Of a stretch of DNA of 64,000 nt, positions 6,206-52,466 are shown one piece after another. Source of the DNA: Verrucomicrobiota bacterium (lineage in GTDB: Bacteria > Verrucomicrobiota > Verrucomicrobiia > Limisphaerales > JAXMHQ01); contig JAXMHQ010000001.1 in NCBI GenBank assembly GCA_046346665.1, positions 131,896 through 195,895 of the forward strand, in the 5' to 3' direction. Numbering within the stretch: the first letter of the stretch is position 1; every line of letters begins with the position of its first letter. Position numbers and translations under genes: made by a program. Under the pieces are notes generated by a model that saw nothing but the letters and a program-made list of their open reading frames with translations, was not told where the DNA came from and searched no databases.

Positions 6206-7258
6206 TCAACGCACCAGGTCGTCGAGCGATTGCACCCCGGCTTGCATCCGTTCGATAACCGGATTGGCCCGGGCCCGCGCATTGTCTTCCGTCTGGCCGG
6301 CAAAAGATTTCATCTTCACACAAATCGCCGCGATCGATTCGCCGTTCCGATCCGTCAACGGCGCCGTGATGGTCACCCACGATTTTCCGCGCGCCCAGTA
6401 ACGGGTGCCCCGCGCTATCACATCCTTCTCCACTTCCGTCCCAGCCCGCCCCACCTCGCCGGGATCGGTCGATGCGATCACCACCGGGGTTGACCCTGGC
6501 TTCTCAACGGTGTAAATCGCCAATCCCAGCAGGCGCGGAAACTCTTTCATCACCGAGGCGATCAGCCTCTGCGCCGGCGCTTCCTCGTGGGTGAACCGCA
6601 CCCGGGCATCGCGAAAATACGTCACCGCGTCCGACTTTGTCCAAAACCCGATCTTTCCCGCCTTCGGCCCCGCGCTGTCGATCAGCCTGATCAGGTCCTT
6701 GCCGTCCAGCGCACAGGTGATCCGGTTTCCCTCGCATTCAACCGACAACTCGTGCCATTCCCCCTTCGAAACGACGATGTCCGGGCCGATCGGCGGCTTC
6801 AATTCACCGTCCACCACCCGGTAACAGCGGAAATTCCCGCCCAACACACTGGCCCGCACCACGGAAAAATTCGATTCGTTCTGAAATCGGAACACCACGC
6901 CGCCCATCTGTTCCAGAGCGCCTCCCACACACTTGAACCGGGTCGTGAATTTGAAATCCCCGAAATCCTCGTTGGTGTAGACCAGGATCGGGTAGTGATC
7001 CGGCAACCCGCTGCGCGCCAACTGCGCCAGCACCGCCTGCTTGCTCACCACCATGGCTTTCGACGTCAACGGCGCCAGCAACGGCGCCACTTCGTCCAGG
7101 ATCACCTTCCAGTCCCCCGGCTTCCCCATCCCCGCCACCGCGCTCCGAAACCCCGGCGGCGGTTGATCCCCGGCTTCCTTGCCAAAATCAAACACCACGT
7201 CCGACCCGCGCACGCGCCCCACCGCCAGGACGGCTAAAATCACAAAAAACAATCGCAT
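6206..7258 (-). CDS. secreted hypothetical protein; N-terminal DUF1080/LamG-like domain plus C-terminal domain of unknown (possibly PDC/Cache-like) fold
   Basis: Signal peptide MRLFFVILAVLAVGRVRG. FGDFKFTTRFK...GGVVFRF...WHELSVECEGNRITCALDG...GKIGFWTKSDAVTYFRDARVRF resembles the DUF1080 pattern. The C-terminal 120 aa are unassigned. Confidence 0.65.
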   Translation of the reverse strand: MRLFFVILAVLAVGRVRGSDVVFDFGKEAGDQPPPGFRSAVAGMGKPGDWKVILDEVAPLLAPLTSKAMVVSKQAVLAQLARSGLPDHYPILVYTNEDFGDFKFTTRFKCVGGALEQMGGVVFRFQNESNFSVVRASVLGGNFRCYRVVDGELKPPIGPDIVVSKGEWHELSVECEGNRITCALDGKDLIRLIDSAGPKAGKIGFWTKSDAVTYFRDARVRFTHEEAPAQRLIASVMKEFPRLLGLAIYTVEKPGSTPVVIASTDPGEVGRAGTEVEKDVIARGTRYWARGKSWVTITAPLTDRNGESIAAICVKMKSFAGQTEDNARARANPVIERMQAGVQSLDDLVR

Positions 7259-7399: not shown

Positions 7400-8617
7400 A
7401 TGGCTAAGATCCTGTTGGTGGAAGACGATTTGGTGATCGCCCGAATCTACCGGCGCAAGCTGGAGGAAGCCGGGCACGAGGTTGCCACGGCGGAGGACGG
7501 CCTGGAAGCGATGAAACAAATCCCGGTCTTCCGGCCCGACCTCGTCGTGCTCGACCTGATGATCCCCAAACTCAGCGGGATCGACGTTCTCAAATACATC
7601 CGTCAACACCCCGATTTCAACCGGCTGCCGGTGGTCGTTTTCACCAACGCATTTCTCAACAAACTCTGGGAGGAACTCACCGCGCTCGGCGTTCAGGAAA
7701 TGCTCCTGAAATCCTCCAGCACACCGCCCCAGCTCATCGCCGCCATCGCGCGCATCCTTCAGCAACACCATGCGCGGGAAATCTCCGCCGCGGATTCCGC
7801 CACGAGCCCCGCTGCCGCCCGGCCCAGCCCGGAATTCCCCCAGCCCCCGCCGTCCCGCAGCAGCGAAAGCGCCTCCCAGTTCCGCCAGCGCATTCAACAC
7901 GATTTCTTCGAACAAATCCCCGTCATCTGCGGCGGCATCCACCTCGCCGGCCGTGATTTTCTCAACGCACCCGATGCCTCCTCACGCCTGCTGCGACTGG
8001 AACCGCTCCGCCGCAAAATCGGGTTTGTCACCCACATGACGTCCATGGCCGGATGTTACCGGCTCGCCCAGCTCTCCAGCGCTTTCGAAGCGCTCCTCTT
8101 CGAACTCCAGTTGAAACCCTCCGCCATCAACGACTCCTCGCGACACACCATCTCGAATACCATCAGCCTGCTCACCTCCGGGCTCAACCTCGCCAACCAG
8201 CCCGACGAACAAAGCCTCACCCCCATCCAGGTGCTCGTTCTCGACGACGACCCCGTCTCCACCCGCGCCCTCGTCGTCACCCTGGACCGCGTCAATGTCA
8301 AAGCCACCGCCCTCGCCAACCCCTTCGAGGCCCTCGAGAAACTTCGCCAGAACCTCTACGACGCCGTCCTGCTCGATATCAATCTCCCCGAAATCACCGG
8401 GTTCGCCGTGTGCGAACAAATGCGCCAGATGCCGCACCACGCCCAGACCCCCGTCATTTTCGTCACGAGCTACGCCGAGTTCGAACCCCGCGCCCGCTCC
8501 ATCCTCAGCGCCGGCGACGATCTCATCGGCAAACCCATCATGCCTATCGAACTGACCGTCAAAGTCATCGCCCACGTGATGAAACAACGCGCCCGCCTCT
8601 CGCCCGCGGTGTTCTGA
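7400..8617 (+). CDS. response regulator with two receiver domains and a central HPt-like segment (REC-HPt-REC)
   Basis: N-terminal REC (KILLVEDD...DLVVLDLMIPKLSG...LLKS). C-terminal REC (VLVLDDDP...DAVLLDINLPEITG...GKP). The central VTHMTSMAGCYRLAQL resembles an HPt H-x-x-(K/S)-G helix. The start is taken at ATG 7400. Confidence 0.8.
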   Translation: MAKILLVEDDLVIARIYRRKLEEAGHEVATAEDGLEAMKQIPVFRPDLVVLDLMIPKLSGIDVLKYIRQHPDFNRLPVVVFTNAFLNKLWEELTALGVQEMLLKSSSTPPQLIAAIARILQQHHAREISAADSATSPAAARPSPEFPQPPPSRSSESASQFRQRIQHDFFEQIPVICGGIHLAGRDFLNAPDASSRLLRLEPLRRKIGFVTHMTSMAGCYRLAQLSSAFEALLFELQLKPSAINDSSRHTISNTISLLTSGLNLANQPDEQSLTPIQVLVLDDDPVSTRALVVTLDRVNVKATALANPFEALEKLRQNLYDAVLLDINLPEITGFAVCEQMRQMPHHAQTPVIFVTSYAEFEPRARSILSAGDDLIGKPIMPIELTVKVIAHVMKQRARLSPAVF

Positions 8618-36095: not shown

Positions 36096-36285
36096 CCGTC
36101 TCTATGCAGTCGGTTTTCCTGGGGATAAACGCAGAGGCGCGGAGGGCGCAGAGATTCGCAGAGAACTGGCGGCTTTTTCGGGGTCACCGATTGGTGAGCG
36201 ATTTGCCTGACCCATTTCTCTGCGGTCCTCCGCGTCCTCTGCGTCTCTGCGTGAGTTTGAGTTTTTTTGAATTGCATAGAGACGG
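36096..36285. repeat. nested inverted repeats: outer 15-bp pair plus inner word-periodic arms (CGCAGAGG family)
   Basis: Outer ccgtctctatgcagt / attgcatagagacgg. Inner acgcagaggcgcggagggcgcagagattcgcagagaa / ttctctgcggtcctccgcgtcctctgcgtctctgcgt. A T-run (gagttttttt) follows the right inner arm on the plus strand. Confidence 0.8.
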
Positions 36286-46898: not shown

Positions 46899-48206
46899 AT
46901 GTCACAGACAGGGCGGCAGACCATCAACACGAGCAACGTGCTTTCGGTGATCATGGGCGGCGGACAGGGCACGCGGCTGTTCCCGCTCACCAAGGAGCGG
47001 TCCAAGCCCGCGGTGCCGCTGGCGGGCAAATACCGGCTGGTCGACATCCCGATTTCCAACTGCATCAATTCCGGCCTGCGCCGCATCTACCTGCTCACCC
47101 AGTTCAATTCCGCCTCGCTGCACCGCCACATTTCCCAGTCGTACAAGTTCGATCATTTCACCGGCGGTTTCGTGGAGATCCTGGCGGCGGAGCAGACGAT
47201 GACGGACAATTCCTGGTACCAGGGCACGGCCGACGCGGTGCGGAAAAACCTGATTCATTTTCTGAACCACGATTTCGATTACCTGCTGATCCTGAGCGGC
47301 GACCAATTGTATCACATGGATTTCCGGCGGATTATCGCGCAGCACCAGGAGACGGGGGCGGACATCACCGTGGCGACCATCCCCGTGTCGCGGCGCGAAT
47401 CGGAATCGCTGGGCATCATGCAAATCGATGCCGAACGGCGGATCACGCGGTTTGTGGAGAAGCCGAAGGACCCGGCGGTGCAGGATTCCCTTCGGCTGAC
47501 GCCGGACTGGCTGGAGCGGCTGGGGATTGAGGCGGGCAAGGAGTGTTTCCTGGCGTCGATGGGCATCTACGTGTTCAACCGGGATGTTGTCCGCAAGCTC
47601 CTGGACAACAACCTGACGGATTTCGGCAAGCACATCATCCCGGGCGCGATCGGGACGCAGCGCGTGTTCTCGTTTGTGTTCCAGGGTTACTGGGAGGATA
47701 TCGGGACGATCCGGTCGTTTTTCGAAGCCAACCTCGACGTCACGTCGGAGCTGCCGCGGTTTAATTTCTTCGACATGGGCGCGCCGATCTTCAGCCGGCC
47801 GCGGTTCCTGCCGGGCTCAAAAATCAACAGCGCGCAGGTGGACCACGCGGTGATTTCCGACGGCTGCATCATCAATCATTCGCGCATTTCGCACAGCATC
47901 GTGGGCGTGCGCAGCATCGTGGGCGCCGGGACCGAACTGAACCGCGTCATCCTGCTGGGCTGCGATTATTATGAATCGGCCGAGTCGATCGCCGCCAATG
48001 AACAGGCGGGCCGGCCGCGGATCGGGGTGGGGATGAACACGCGCATTGAAAACGCGATCATCGACAAAAATGCGCGCATCGGGGACAACGTGACCATTTC
48101 GCCCGCCGGCAAGCCCGAACAGGTGGATCACCCGCTGTATTACATCCGCGACGGCATTGTAATCATCCCCAAGAGCGGCGTCGTCCCGCACGGCACGGTC
48201 ATTTGA
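46899..48206 (+). CDS. glgC: glucose-1-phosphate adenylyltransferase
   Basis: VIMGGGQGTRLFPLTKERSKPAVPLAGKYRLVDIPISNCINSG, WYQGTADAV, and the left-handed beta-helix C-terminus. ATG 46899; upstream ORF-track residues are encoded by a repeat. Confidence 0.95.
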   Translation: MSQTGRQTINTSNVLSVIMGGGQGTRLFPLTKERSKPAVPLAGKYRLVDIPISNCINSGLRRIYLLTQFNSASLHRHISQSYKFDHFTGGFVEILAAEQTMTDNSWYQGTADAVRKNLIHFLNHDFDYLLILSGDQLYHMDFRRIIAQHQETGADITVATIPVSRRESESLGIMQIDAERRITRFVEKPKDPAVQDSLRLTPDWLERLGIEAGKECFLASMGIYVFNRDVVRKLLDNNLTDFGKHIIPGAIGTQRVFSFVFQGYWEDIGTIRSFFEANLDVTSELPRFNFFDMGAPIFSRPRFLPGSKINSAQVDHAVISDGCIINHSRISHSIVGVRSIVGAGTELNRVILLGCDYYESAESIAANEQAGRPRIGVGMNTRIENAIIDKNARIGDNVTISPAGKPEQVDHPLYYIRDGIVIIPKSGVVPHGTVI

Positions 48207-48216
48207 CCGCGAAGTT

Positions 48217-48247
48217 CTTTTCACCACGAAGGCGCGAAGCGCACGAA
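48217..48247 (+). repeat. 31-bp direct repeat, copy 1 (orphan left arm, CACGAAG family) just after the glgC stop
   Basis: ttttcaccacgaaggcgcgaagcgcacgaag is 29/31 identical to 48799..48829. Confidence 0.9.
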
Positions 48248-48255
48248 GTTCAGAA

Positions 48256-48687
48256 TTACATCTGTTCCGGGCGGGCTTCCGGATTTTTCCGCGTGTGCCC
48301 CGTGTCCAGGATCAGGCGGGTGATGCCGTCTTTCAGAAGGCTGACATTGAAATTCAGCAAGAGCCCGACCCGAACATTCGCGAGCTTCATATAGGTTAGC
48401 AACTGGGCTTTGTGAATTGGATCAATGTTTGCGACGGATTTAAGCTCCACGATGATACCTCGATCCACCATCAAATCCAGCCGGTAGCCGCAATCGATGG
48501 CCATCCCCTTGTAGCAAACAGGCAATGGCACTTGCGCCTGAAATGGAATTTTTTGCAAAGCGAGTTCGTGCGCGAGGCAGTGTTCGTAAGCGGATTCCAG
48601 CAAACCCGGCCCGAGGGCGCGATGCACTTCTATGGCGCAGCCGATCAACCGGTTCGAGAGTTCTTCAAACTGAATGGTTCCCTGCAT
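48256..48687 (-). CDS. GxxExxY protein (PDDEXK_3 / PD-(D/E)XK nuclease-like family)
   Basis: IGCAIEVHRALGPGLLESAYEHCLAHEL carries the family-defining G..E..Y motif. D...VELK and QLLTYMK blocks follow. Lower GC than its neighbours. Confidence 0.85.
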   Translation of the reverse strand: MQGTIQFEELSNRLIGCAIEVHRALGPGLLESAYEHCLAHELALQKIPFQAQVPLPVCYKGMAIDCGYRLDLMVDRGIIVELKSVANIDPIHKAQLLTYMKLANVRVGLLLNFNVSLLKDGITRLILDTGHTRKNPEARPEQM

Positions 48688-48798
48688 GCTATTCCCTTTC
48701 CTTTATGAACCACGAGAATTCGAGATTCAACCTTGCATGAGAGAATAAAGCCGCGGGTAGGACAATGGCAGTCCAACCTCACAGAAACAGGGAAGACA

Positions 48799-48911
48799 TT
48801 TTTACCACGCAGGCGCGAAGCGCACGAAGATTTGTTCAGGGATAGCCTAACAAGAAAAACTTCGCGCTCTTCGCGCCTTCGTGGTGAACAAAGTCTTCGC
48901 CCTTCGTGGTC
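48799..48911. repeat. 31-bp direct repeat copy 2 plus its complementary arm (intact CACGAAG-family hairpin abutting the CBM48 gene stop)
   Basis: tttttaccacgcaggcgcgaagcgcacgaag - 30-nt loop - cttcgcgctcttcgcgccttcgtggtgaa, followed by a partial extra word gtcttcgcccttcgtggtc. Confidence 0.85.
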
Positions 48912-48919
48912 AGCGCCGG

Positions 48920-49345
48920 CTACTTGGTCTGCGCGTAGAGCATGAAGACGCGCCCGCCGCGGGCGGTTTGGAGCTGGAACTGTTCCTCCTGCGGCCCGTG
49001 CGGAATCGCCAGCCCGTCCGCATTTTTATCCTGCACCGGTTTGCCATCCACCAGGATCATGTAGTGATGGGTGCGGTTCCCGGGGATGTGGTGAAGCGTG
49101 ACGTGCCAGGCGTCAACTTCGCTGTCGCGTGTGAGCGGCACTTTCTGCCAGTTGTTGAAGGAGCCGACGATCTCGACCGTGGCCGGCGCCTGGGTTTGTC
49201 CGTCGGGCAACCGCCAGCGGAATACCTTGGAATAAGTCGGGCGCCGGTCGGGGGAGTCCTGGTGTTTCAGCGGCGATCCGGCGAAAGGTTCTGGAACCAT
49301 CGGCCCGCCCTTGGAGGATTTCTGACCAAAAAAACTGTTCAGCAT
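48920..49345 (-). CDS. glycogen-binding (CBM48 / AMPK1_CBM-like) domain protein
   Basis: VFRWRLPDG...VEIVGSFNNWQKVPLTRD.....WHVTL.L.PG.H.Y..LVDG is the AMPK beta/CBM48 pattern. Confidence 0.7.
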   Translation of the reverse strand: MLNSFFGQKSSKGGPMVPEPFAGSPLKHQDSPDRRPTYSKVFRWRLPDGQTQAPATVEIVGSFNNWQKVPLTRDSEVDAWHVTLHHIPGNRTHHYMILVDGKPVQDKNADGLAIPHGPQEEQFQLQTARGGRVFMLYAQTK

Positions 49346-49363
49346 ACGACAAAAAACAATTCC

Positions 49364-49458
49364 GGGAGGGACGAGCTACCGCGAGTCCCATTCCAGGCTG
49401 GCGACAAAACCGCTTCTTCTGTGCATTGTGTTGGGGACTCGCATAGCTCGTCCCTCCC
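49364..49458. repeat. long imperfect hairpin (26-nt arms, 43-nt loop), distinct non-periodic repeat type
   Basis: gggagggacgagctaccgcgagtccc ... ggggactcgcatagctcgtccctccc (about 24/26 complementary). Confidence 0.75.
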
Positions 49459-49469
49459 ATATTTACACC

Positions 49470-49509
49470 ATCCGGGAATCCAGTCCAGCGGGAGCTGGAA
49501 TTCCCGGAT
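49470..49509 (-). terminator. hairpin immediately downstream of fba (terminator-like, no U-tract)
   Basis: atccgggaatccag-tccagcgggag-ctggaattcccggat. Confidence 0.45.
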
Positions 49510-49546
49510 AAACGAGGGAGAAATCCGCCGGCGGGGGAGGTTGCGC

Positions 49547-50512
49547 TCAGTCGAAGGCGTGCCCGGCGCAGCACAGGACGTTTCTGACCTTGTGCCGGAC
49601 GAGTTCCTTGACCTTGTTGCGGGCGGGGCCGAGATACTTGCGGGGATCGAATTCCTTGGGATTCTCGAACAGCGCCTTGCGGATGGCGGCCGTCATGGCC
49701 AGGCGCAGGTCGGTGTCGATGTTGACCTTGGTGCAACCGGTGCGGCGCGCGACTTCGATATCCGATTCCGAAACGCCGGCGGTGTCGGTGCCGAGTTTGC
49801 CGCCGTACTTGTTGATTTCCTCCGCGAGATCCTTCGGAACGCTGGAAGCGCCGTGCAGCACGAGCGGGTAATCGCCCAGCCCGGCGTCCATCAGCGCCTT
49901 CTTGATCGCCTTGAGCCGCTCCAGGTCGAGGTGCTGTTCGCCCTTGAATTTATAGGCCCCGTGGGAATTGCCGATGGCGACCGCGAGGGAATCGACGCCG
50001 GATTCGCGCACGAATCGGACGGCTTCCTCGGGGTGGGTGTAATGGCCGGTGGTGGAGTAATTGCCGCCCTCCTCGCCTTCGTCGAACTGCGCGCCGACGA
50101 GGTGGCCGAGTTCGCCTTCCACAACGCAATTGTGCTTGTGGGCGTATTCCACGACGCGCTTGCAGATCTCCACGTTCTTGTCGAACGGCTCGTGGCTCGC
50201 GTCGATCATCACGCTGGTGAACCCCTCATCGATGCAATCCTTGCACAGCTCGAACGAGTCGCCATGGTCCAGGTGGACGGCGATCGGGATGTTCGAGAGG
50301 CTGACGGCGGCTTCGATCAGTTTCTTCAGGTAAACCGGGTTGGCATACTGCCGGGCGCCCTTGGAAATCTGGAGCATGACCGGCGCTTTTTCCTCCTCGC
50401 AGGCCTCAACGATGGCCTGGAGCAGCTCCATGTTGTTGACGTTGAAAGCTCCCAGCGCGTATTTTCCCTTGAGCGCCTTGGCAAACAATTCCCGCGTATG
50501 TGTCAATGGCAT
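49547..50512 (-). CDS. fba: class II fructose-1,6-bisphosphate aldolase
   Basis: YALGAFNVNNMELLQAIVEA, VHLDHG, SVMIDASH, EGELG, AIGNSHG motifs. The start is at internal ATG 50512. Confidence 0.95.
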   Translation of the reverse strand: MPLTHTRELFAKALKGKYALGAFNVNNMELLQAIVEACEEEKAPVMLQISKGARQYANPVYLKKLIEAAVSLSNIPIAVHLDHGDSFELCKDCIDEGFTSVMIDASHEPFDKNVEICKRVVEYAHKHNCVVEGELGHLVGAQFDEGEEGGNYSTTGHYTHPEEAVRFVRESGVDSLAVAIGNSHGAYKFKGEQHLDLERLKAIKKALMDAGLGDYPLVLHGASSVPKDLAEEINKYGGKLGTDTAGVSESDIEVARRTGCTKVNIDTDLRLAMTAAIRKALFENPKEFDPRKYLGPARNKVKELVRHKVRNVLCCAGHAFD

Positions 50513-50626
50513 AAAGTGTCGTTCTGTTTCACGCGCCGCACGGGCGCATATCCGGAACATTTTAGGCGGACCCGGTCAAAAGGAAACAAAAAACACAGGA
50601 CTCACCTCGAAGCAGGGAAGGATTTA

Positions 50627-50881
50627 TCAACCACGAAGACACGAAGAACACGAAGGTTTTGGGGGGGCAGATTGTTTCGATGTTGGGACCGGATGAGGCC
50701 GGCCCTCCAATCGATCCGCTATCGACGATGCAAAGTGAAATGCCTGGAAAAGACCAATCGCGGAAATCAGCCGCAGACTCAGCAAGCGCGCAAAATTCGA
50801 TGTGCACGGAATGAACGAGCAGCCTGGTCCGGCTTTCCCCCGAAAAAGACTTCGCGTTCTCCGCGTCTTCGTGGTGAAAAA
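50627..50881. repeat. word-periodic inverted repeat (CACGAAG family) with ~168-nt lower-GC loop, between the sigma-54 activator gene and fba
   Basis: Left tcaaccacgaagacacgaagaacacgaaggttttggggggg. Right cccccgaaaaagacttcgcgttctccgcgtcttcgtggtgaaaaa. Confidence 0.8.
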
Positions 50882-50894
50882 TTTCCCTCCCCGT

Positions 50895-52364
<1,470 letters not shown>

Positions 52365-52439: not shown

Positions 52440-52466
52440 CACCACGAAGACACGAAGGACGCGAAG
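52440..52466. repeat. orphan left-type arm of the CACGAAG family upstream of the sigma-54 activator gene
   Basis: caccacgaagacacgaaggacgcgaag. No complementary arm lies nearby. It is complementary (~22/27) to the right arm at 50850..50876 on the other side of the gene. Confidence 0.75.

Follow-up and report, generated by a model that had tools for sequence, protein, structure and literature searches.

REPtrons are reportedly RAYT genes, coding for Y1 HUH transposases, that are flanked by inverted repetitive extragenic palindromes (REPs) and accompanied by dispersed REP and REPIN copies; RAYTs themselves are typically single-copy and vertically inherited. Integron attC cassettes are compact, mostly promoterless single open reading frames (ORFs) with imperfect hairpin palindromes, and direct repeats of the palindrome bracket the cassettes. 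Foldback transposons, which are eukaryotic and employ unrelated transposases, have inverted ends composed of short tandem repeats, and the ORF-bearing intervening sequences of 23S rRNA, found in Leptospira and Coxiella, encode proteins of the four-helix-bundle S23p family. Among homing endonucleases, I-Ssp6803I is a PD-(D/E)XK enzyme. We know of no bacterial insertion sequence (IS) family with a stand-alone PD-(D/E)XK protein of ~125 amino acids (aa). The PeSLs of T4-type phages are mobile regulatory cassettes, in which short conserved stem-loop motifs, each a promoter plus a terminator, lie on either side of single ORFs that are often orphans (Arbiol et al. 2010, PMC2839356). The PDDEXK_3 family, for its part, is of unknown function and has undergone multiple transfers (Steczkiewicz 2012, PMC3424549). 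Here we describe a PDDEXK_3 (GxxExxY) gene in a 64,000-nucleotide stretch of a Verrucomicrobiota genome (contig JAXMHQ010000001.1; hereafter the window), where the convergent genes glgC and CBM48 are separated by a 713-bp spacer with three repeat arms and this one gene, all of it an indel when compared with the closest relative found. The locus probably holds a single copy of a self-contained one-gene module that is horizontally mobile, in which a PD-(D/E)XK ORF of ~125 aa sits inside inverted arms made of short repeated words. The parts of the spacer, in window coordinates, are as follows.

48207-48919, unstranded: whole module, the full 713-bp spacer from the glgC stop codon (48204-48206) to the CBM48 stop codon (48920-48922), where the closest relative found has 5 bp instead
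48207-48216, unstranded: outermost degenerate word CCGCGAAG, paired with 48902-48911 in the whole-spacer fold
48218-48250, unstranded: arm L1, which read with the gene is the D arm, beginning 5 nt past the stop codon of the gene
48256-48687, minus strand: GxxExxY / PDDEXK_3 nuclease gene (143 aa), identified by profile matches
48688-48798, minus strand: leader of ~110 nt, from the extra arm to the ATG, of a kind that canonical modules do not have
48799-48833, unstranded: arm L2, an additional arm (D') that repeats L1 directly and forms a compact hairpin with the U arm
48834-48855, unstranded: loop of the compact hairpin, with a short additional stem TTGTT(C)AGG...CCTAACAA within it
48856-48888, unstranded: arm R, which read with the gene is the U arm, its sequence being TTCACCACGAAG G CGCGAAG AG CGCGAAG on the gene strand
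48896-48911, unstranded: outer degenerate words CTTCGCC CTTCGTGGTC, which lengthen the U-side arm

Three near-identical arms of ~31 nt thus stand around one intact GxxExxY gene, those at 48218-48250 and 48799-48833 in the same orientation and that at 48856-48888 inverted; on the gene strand L1 reads CTTCGTG / CTTCGCG / CTTCGTG, then GTGAA. An earlier note on this DNA had described direct repeats around the gene, and these are real: a repeat finder returns 48206-48248 against 48787-48829 (43 nt, 84% identity), and the core arms (48220-48250 and 48801-48831, about 1 nt away from the positions first given) agree at 28 of 31 positions. They also exceed chance. At up to three mismatches, the 29-mer occurs at only three sites in the window, which are the three arms, and it has no occurrence in 100 dinucleotide-preserving shuffles. 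The three arms match one another at 26-29 of 31 positions, against merely 23-25 of 31 for the other CACGAAG-word arms of the window (50630, 50878 and 52441); since the trio resembles itself more than it does these, it is locally related, being neither a product of chance nor generic background. An independent Logan assembly (L001, SRR14234082) reproduces the order fba-CBM48-GxxExxY-glgC exactly and in the filled state, so the locus is not an assembly artefact.

As to which arms belong together, the earlier note had taken the compact hairpin to be primary. Arm R does pair with the nearer copy L2 (33 nt, 85%, 22 nt apart), but pairing with the distant copy L1 is better (31 nt, 94%, 607 nt apart, with 48858-48888 as the complementary segment). 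In the 726-nt sense RNA, whose minimum free energy is -274 kcal/mol (z = -8.6), it is the R-L1 stem and the outer words that close the whole spacer. The enclosing, primary pair in the window copy is therefore L1 with R, and a 31-bp direct repeat exists because a third arm, L2, is present. Read in gene orientation, the layout is U (R) - 22-nt loop - D' (L2) - ~110-nt leader - ORF - 5 nt - D (L1). Whereas the canonical form is U-ORF-D, the window copy has a compact hairpin of the gene-less type (U-D') directly upstream, and no arm abuts its ATG. The leader has no homologue in any fetched locus, and a BLAST search with leader and loops against all fetched loci matched arms only. No promoter-like (sigma-70-like) site was found in 48100-49000. 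A search of 48100-51000 against Rfam at E <= 1 gave a sub-threshold plant miRNA match only, and no Rfam family fits the arms.

The empty counterpart of this site was reached by a protein search with CBM48 followed by retrieval of the contigs, and it is present in two different ENA assemblies (L162 and L163). The first of these is the closest relative with retrievable DNA, with amino acid identities to the window of 96% for fba, 95.5% for the C-terminus of glgC and 84% for CBM48; one CBM48 protein (P0122) is nearer, at 87%. In both assemblies the convergent stop codons of glgC and CBM48 are 5 bp apart (...CAGACGAAG TAG GATTC CTA AATCACCGTGCC...), and all 713 bp of 48207-48919 are absent, including L1, the gene, the leader, L2, the loop, R and the outer words, with no hairpin left. 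A gene-less site had been predicted, and was found; the single hairpin expected to remain there was not. Because the spacer is missing whole, the arms have been gained or lost together with the gene. The spacer is moreover a variable spot in relatives. Among 80 metagenomic glgC loci (72-87% amino acid identity) there was no clean empty site, and CBM48 is kept downstream of glgC in three only (L002, L003 and L008). In these three the gap holds a dienelactone hydrolase (DLH) gene (L003 5684-6481, L008 5699-6595) or a methyltransferase gene (L002 5555-6352), and a truncated methyltransferase remnant lies at the same spot in L164 (5498-5845).

The bracket is not peculiar to this locus. We took 80 GxxExxY loci from GTDB species genomes, the sample including Planctomycetota, Desulfuromonadales, Kiritimatiellia, Chloroflexota, KSB1, Acidobacteriota, many Alphaproteobacteria, Gammaproteobacteria, Bacteroidota and Verrucomicrobiota, and scored the 75 that had complete flanks by aligning the 300 nt upstream to the reverse complement of the 300 nt downstream. 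The median inverted-repeat score is 34, compared with 20 in 388 shifted controls, and the maximum is 96 against 32 (Mann-Whitney p = 6e-24), which bears out, strongly and in general, the expectation that other GxxExxY copies would be bracketed by hairpin arms. The arms are tandem arrays, usually of three copies with a period of 8-9, of the 7-nt word C[A/G]C-N-[A/G]-A-G; the variants met are CACGAAG, CACAAAG, CACAGAG, CACGGAG, CACCAAG, CGCAGAG and CGCCAAG, with GCAAAG in Chitinophaga. On the gene strand the purine-rich words lie upstream and their complement downstream, the upstream arm ending 0-10 nt before the start codon and the downstream arm beginning 0-20 nt past the stop, and the outer termini are TT(C/GA)ACCAC ... 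GTGGT(G/TC)AA. A copy from the cultured species Bacteroides finegoldii has the same design (TTCACCACAGAGGACGCAGAGGACACGGAG ... gene ... CTCTGTGACCTCTGTGTCCTCTGTGGTGAA).

Counted with a regular expression requiring at least three words, there are 151 arrays in 456 kb of GxxExxY loci, 7 in the 64-kb window and none in shuffled sequence, while 507 kb of glgC loci contain three, two of them in L001, the same locus as that of the window. The exact order U, gene, D is found in 36 of 73 loci, and at least one arm in 66 of 73. In a control that takes account of gene structure, all 4950 ORFs of 60-400 aa from the bacterial loci and the window were scanned; tight inverted brackets surround 34 of them, 26 being GxxExxY genes. 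The words also change in concert on both sides of the gene, being all CACCAAG in some copies (L113, L135, L139, L154), all CACGGAG in another (L091) and all CGCCAAG in a third case (L115). Arm-ORF-arm is thus the rule for the GxxExxY family across phyla, and the arms share one word grammar and are not hairpins peculiar to each host. We found no description of this architecture in the full text of open-access papers and bioRxiv, and an earlier description elsewhere is possible; the conserved foldback bracket of heptamer-word arrays around GxxExxY genes, delimiting a transferable unit and with gene-less relatives, appears to be new.

Repeat brackets of other kinds were met as well. In a Prevotellaceae locus (L108 1072-1533), a palindromic repeat of another kind, GTCCCCCTTCTAAGGGGGATTTAGAGGGTCTC, brackets a DUF559 gene (Vsr-like PD-(D/E)XK; PF04480, 2e-33) and has a further copy inside the 5' end of that gene; this is a second family of small nucleases within a repeat bracket. 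A related Verrucomicrobiota contig (L007) carries a REP-like palindrome, GTGGCACGGGCG...CGCCCGTGCCAC, at 6700-6735 and 7400-7440, around an unrelated ORF of 211 aa, so ordinary REP-type bracketing of genes also occurs.

Comparison of non-orthologous copies indicates how far the unit extends. Two copies on different contigs of one metagenome-assembled genome (MAG; L103 and L121) are 86% identical over 454 bp, and homology runs from -39 to +30 relative to start and stop. The corresponding limits are -45 to +36 for copies from two Phenylobacterium species (L119 and L126), and -78 to +39 for an unclassified bacterial MAG compared with candidate division KSB1 (L083 and L090). At the junctions, similarity extends from TT(C/GA)ACCAC / TTGGAACAC to the mirror-image terminus, and the flanks are unrelated. 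Since homology goes no further than the outer termini of the arms, it is the ORF with its arms that moves as a unit. Only 8 matches to GxxExxY were found in plasmid records, and these did not lend themselves to comparing filled with empty sites. Departures from the canonical order include hairpin-gene-hairpin layouts (L098, L109, L123, L130), full modules preceded by a compact hairpin (L157, L160), a mirror form in which the additional arm is U-type and follows the gene (L097) and back-to-back arms (L121, L161). Such layouts would be expected from single crossovers between arms, or from tandem insertion beside a hairpin of the same family. In several Caulobacteraceae and Phenylobacterium genomes (L099, L106, L122, L126 and L129) the module lies ~1 kb downstream of a tRNA gene, and some of these loci are clearly orthologous, so that here the module has kept its place across species.

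The gene at 48256-48687 is, as first proposed, a single minus-strand member of the GxxExxY family, matching PF13366 (2.4e-43, 147.6 bits, cut-off 22) and TIGR04256 (5.6e-44, 149.2 bits, cut-off 35). These were the sole Pfam and NCBIfam matches of its protein, with no Y1 HUH, DDE, DEDD, serine or tyrosine recombinase transposase among them. The residues G28-x-x-E31-x-x-Y34, D71, E81 and K83 all fall in columns that are invariant across 45 homologues, and the nuclease is likely to be catalytically active. The AlphaFold (AF2) model has a predicted local distance difference test (pLDDT) value of 87 and the element order helix-helix-strands-helix-strand; residues ~128-143 form a 16-aa C-terminal tail of low pLDDT that lies outside the family. 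Against the PDB, Foldseek returned weak matches that are all PD-(D/E)XK enzymes, namely Cas4 SSO0001, lambda exonuclease and Hjc (E ~4e-3, TM-score 0.4-0.46), while a sequence search of the PDB gave no match. PHROGs likewise gave no match for the nuclease, and PADLOC none that was significant, Cas4 and PDC-M36A being the best at E ~0.02.

In composition the gene is foreign to its surroundings. Its GC content is 0.535, and its third-position GC content (GC3) is 0.66 against 0.79-0.86 in five neighbouring genes, as the earlier note had observed. A 99%-identical protein (P0001) is present in an NCBI Verrucomicrobiota MAG; the exact protein was found on one other contig only, in the same context, and no identical copies were found at other sites. 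The best non-self proteins are 66-74% identical and are named from Planctomycetes, Desulfuromonadales, Desulfobacterales, an archaeon and others, and these identities across phyla agree with the multiple transfers previously reported (PMC3424549). The family as a whole comprises 22,775 clusters at 50% identity. Its best-scoring representatives (P0241-P0252 and others) are tandem fusions of two GxxExxY domains, ~265-295 aa long, which suggests that the single-domain protein may work as a dimer on a two-fold symmetric substrate.

Two further observations concern short stems in and near the gene. A terminator-like stem, TCCGGGCGGGCTTCCGGA followed by TTTTT, lies at 48266-48283 on the plus strand, inside the 3' end of the GxxExxY ORF and 60 nt past the glgC stop; it overlaps the region coding for the low-pLDDT tail, and could serve as the glgC terminator. 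A GC-clamped mini-hairpin, (G)GCGCGAAGCGC(C), recurs in or beside arms, being found just past the stop codon in L137, L143 and L148, in the hairpin loops of L109 and at 48229-48241 of the window, and GGGCCTTCGGCCC lies upstream of the arm in L088, L092 and L094. The GCGAAGC and C(UUCG)G motifs are known to form unusually stable mini-hairpins in DNA and RNA.

Arms of the same kind also occur with no GxxExxY gene, and the window itself contains three such loci.

36130-36251, unstranded: gene-less compact hairpin with CGCAGAG-type words, four per arm, followed by a T-run
50630-50878, unstranded: gene-less hairpin of the same word family, with arms at 50630-50656 and 50850-50878 and ~190 nt between them
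52441-52466, unstranded: solitary CACGAAG-word arm, for which no partner arm was found

Profile searches found no GxxExxY remnants in the loops of gene-less hairpins. Compact gene-less hairpins are present in other loci too (L086, L097, L100, L105, L136, L146 and L157), and a pattern scan of IMG/VR for word arrays returned at least 120 stretches, with 286 arrays in the 120 loci among the matches listed (L165-L284; 1.05 Mb). In viral contigs among these matches, CACGAAG-word arms tightly bracket unrelated single ORFs (for instance L172 765-1135, L233 3034-3474 and L242 2757-3162); a further example of an arm pair around a non-GxxExxY gene lies at L217 11912-13054. The word-array hairpin is thus a wider family than the nuclease module, and mainly for this reason we do not take it as established that the nuclease mobilises the arms.

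How, then, might such a module spread? On the reading that we favour, the arms would be the ends of the element, either a foldback or a terminal inverted repeat, and the nuclease, probably as a dimer, would recognise or cut the arms, or the hairpin or cruciform that they form, and so promote copying of the module. That it acts on the arms is something we infer from three features: the identical tandem words, which change jointly on the two sides of the gene, resemble repeated sites for protein recognition more than a mere stem; the tandem fusions suggest a dimer on a two-fold symmetric substrate; and the nearest folds include, weakly, a Holliday-junction resolvase, Cas4 and lambda exonuclease. 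The gene-less hairpins would be non-autonomous derivatives. The extra arm of the window copy may have come from recombination between arms, in which an intermediate consisting of the gene and one arm met a resident hairpin of the same family, or from tandem insertion beside such a hairpin; capture by recombination between hairpin arms, which the earlier note had offered for the gene, would thus be a viable origin of this arm. As a compatible second layer, arms that lie directly against the start and stop codons may, by pairing in the transcript, also bury the ribosome-binding region and hold expression down. Foreign composition together with the family-level evidence favours a gain in the lineage of the window. 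A stronger version, that GxxExxY modules are an unrecognised class of autonomous prokaryotic mobile element, whose sole protein is a dimeric nuclease of ~125 aa that recognises foldback ends of heptamer words as duplex, hairpin or cruciform, and whose MITE-like or REP-like derivatives (MITE, miniature inverted-repeat transposable element) are the gene-less hairpins of bacteria and phages, is one that we put forward tentatively, as possible.

Several observations weigh against this account. Orthologous sets keep the module across species (L088/L092/L094, L099/L106/L110, L113/L117, L137/L143/L148 and L156/L159), a pattern as compatible with prolonged vertical residence or domestication as with mobility. 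The outgroups do not polarise the indel, as relatives hold DLH, methyltransferase or truncated methyltransferase genes at this spot. No target-site duplication was seen at the junctions between window and L162, a single empty-site pair of ~88% nucleotide identity, nor in L103/L121 or L119/L126. In the viral data, a profile search found no GxxExxY gene in 80 array-rich loci (721 kb) among the matches listed, and the family is absent from 50,697 GenBank phage records. Arrays in the listed viral contigs flank ordinary phage genes, including that of the major head protein phrog_1005, and lie just past stop codons at a frequency of 0.44, compared with 0.14 for random positions. The arms can hence exist, and perhaps function, without a GxxExxY nuclease, and the link between the two is one of inference. 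Finally, the counts of G.U and A.C mismatches do not part DNA-level from RNA-level pairing.

The strongest alternative, which we regard as rather doubtful, is that the locus is an RNA-level cassette (a 'moron'). The arms would form a long transcript stem, comparable to the processing stalks of rRNA and its intervening sequences or to phage RNase III sites, that insulates the mRNA of the ORF from host read-through, masks the ribosome-binding site and protects the ends of that mRNA by making them more stable; the cassette would spread by generic transfer and recombination, and the nuclease would have a role unrelated to the arms, for example in repair or defence. The position of the arms suits this explanation, since with arms abutting start and stop codons pairing would occlude the start region, as does the whole-spacer RNA fold closed by the L1-R stem. 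The viral hairpins among the matches listed, placed right past stop codons and beside highly expressed genes such as that of the major head protein, point the same way. By inspection, the three transition mismatches of the 50630-50878 hairpin are G.U on the minus strand, which is the strand of both flanking genes. Yet the sense strand of 36 modules has 48 G.U and 39 A.C mismatches (p = 0.39), which is no excess. In compact hairpins the transition mismatches are all of one type in 11 of 22 cases, against 6.8 expected, and orientation by the upstream gene gives 28 against 20, a weak and non-significant trend. A transcript stem, furthermore, needs no tandem identical words, and the explanation does not account for the change of all six words together between lineages, nor for the exact end of inter-copy homology at the arm termini. 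A role in defence finds no significant match in PADLOC.

A second alternative, and an unlikely one, is that of the earlier note, in which a host terminator hairpin already stood between glgC and CBM48 and a one-gene cassette was inserted at it with duplication of one arm. Part of this holds: the difference is a one-gene indel, an arm is genuinely duplicated and the composition is foreign. The U - D' - gene - D layout is also what a single crossover in one arm would leave, and as the family has gene-less hairpins in the same genome, a two-step history, with the hairpin first and the gene second, is conceivable. The hairpin itself, however, is absent from the empty site, where the spacer of the closest relative found is 5 bp, and so it belongs to the cassette; its absence there contradicts insertion into a resident terminator. 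Nor does it look like a terminator, as the hairpin at 48799-48888 is not called by a terminator scan and is followed by no T-run on either strand. The arms are, besides, the bracket typical of GxxExxY genes in unrelated phyla, where they move with the gene; L1 pairs with R better than L2 does; and the glgC loci of related Verrucomicrobiota contain hardly any word arrays (1 in ~500 kb). That CACGAAG-type hairpins are merely an abundant REP-like family, copies of which reached each of the neighbouring intergenic regions and make the direct repeat uninformative about the gene, is highly improbable: there are indeed four array loci within 64 kb, and other REP-like palindromes bracket unrelated genes (L007 and L108), but the trio is closer to itself than to the other window arms, the association of gene and arms is specific over 75 loci with arrays almost only beside a GxxExxY gene, and both intergenic regions and the gene are missing jointly in the relative. 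Word arrays serving as Chi-like sites, as CsrA sites or as mimics of Shine-Dalgarno or anti-Shine-Dalgarno sequences are further conceivable readings, which form no part of the explanation offered here.

Returning to the proposed mobile module, the bracket, the transferable unit and the identified empty site turn the question of GxxExxY function into concrete experiments. If the nuclease mobilises the arms, small genes and REP- or MITE-like hairpins would have a new route for spreading among the genomes of bacteria and phages, and the autonomous-element version, if true, would give an orphan family with more than 22,000 clusters at 50% identity its function. Should the arms act in RNA instead, they would be a portable device that insulates the expression of genes acquired horizontally. 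In both cases annotators can recognise the modules and the related gene-less hairpins.

Set beside the systems introduced at the outset, the module shares with the intervening sequences of 23S rRNA a small ORF, from a sporadic multi-copy family, within a long inverted-repeat stem. The protein family is a different one, though, and the window locus lies between protein-coding genes; none of 40 GxxExxY loci is located in rRNA, and at Rfam gathering thresholds these loci gave tRNAs only. Homing endonuclease genes, free-standing or intron-borne and including that of I-Ssp6803I, resemble it in being small selfish nuclease genes with presence/absence polymorphism, foreign composition and transfer across phyla. 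Unlike them, the module is not in an intron or intein and has inverted-repeat ends of its own, and its empty site (TAG-GATTC-CTA) has no recognisable target or hairpin. With integron attC cassettes it has in common the compact logic of a single ORF plus a palindrome. In contrast to these, the arm termini here and at other loci are TTCACCAC ... GTGGTGAA, with no RYYYAAC / GTTRRRY core sites, and the canonical module has its gene inside one palindrome, not between two; no cassette array is visible around 48207-48919, in a window that was not scanned for IntI.

Foldback transposons and MITEs are alike in their inverted ends of tandem repeats and in having some copies with a coding loop and others that are gene-less, but no target-site duplication was seen at the module ends compared here. 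One IS- or MITE-like trait is nevertheless present, in that terminal inverted repeats delimit the unit, with inter-copy homology stopping at the arm termini. PeSL cassettes share the motif-ORF-motif layout, and in them recombination between motifs shuffles genes and can release mini-circles (PMC2839356); recombination of this type would yield hairpin-gene-hairpin and duplicated-arm layouts like those found here. They differ in that we found no sigma-70-like promoter or U-tract terminator, and in that PeSLs are specific to a phage lineage, whereas the present word family spans many bacterial phyla with one protein family as its dominant cargo.

In its logic the module comes closest to the REPtron. 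In both, a single gene lies between inverted copies of a short palindromic family that also exists gene-less, and the flanking repeats are the presumed substrate of the enzyme; here, too, copies of the repeat without a gene are scattered over intergenic regions. The enzymes differ, being PD-(D/E)XK in the one case and IS200/IS605-like Y1 HUH in the other, and the arms of the present module consist of 7-nt words in tandem and reach up to the start and stop codons. The GxxExxY gene is, moreover, multi-copy and exchanged between phyla, and in the sampled loci its gene-less copies do not greatly outnumber the gene-bearing ones. We would see the module as kin to selfish nucleases and repeat-flanked gene modules, with a substantial chance that it represents a new class of mobile element.

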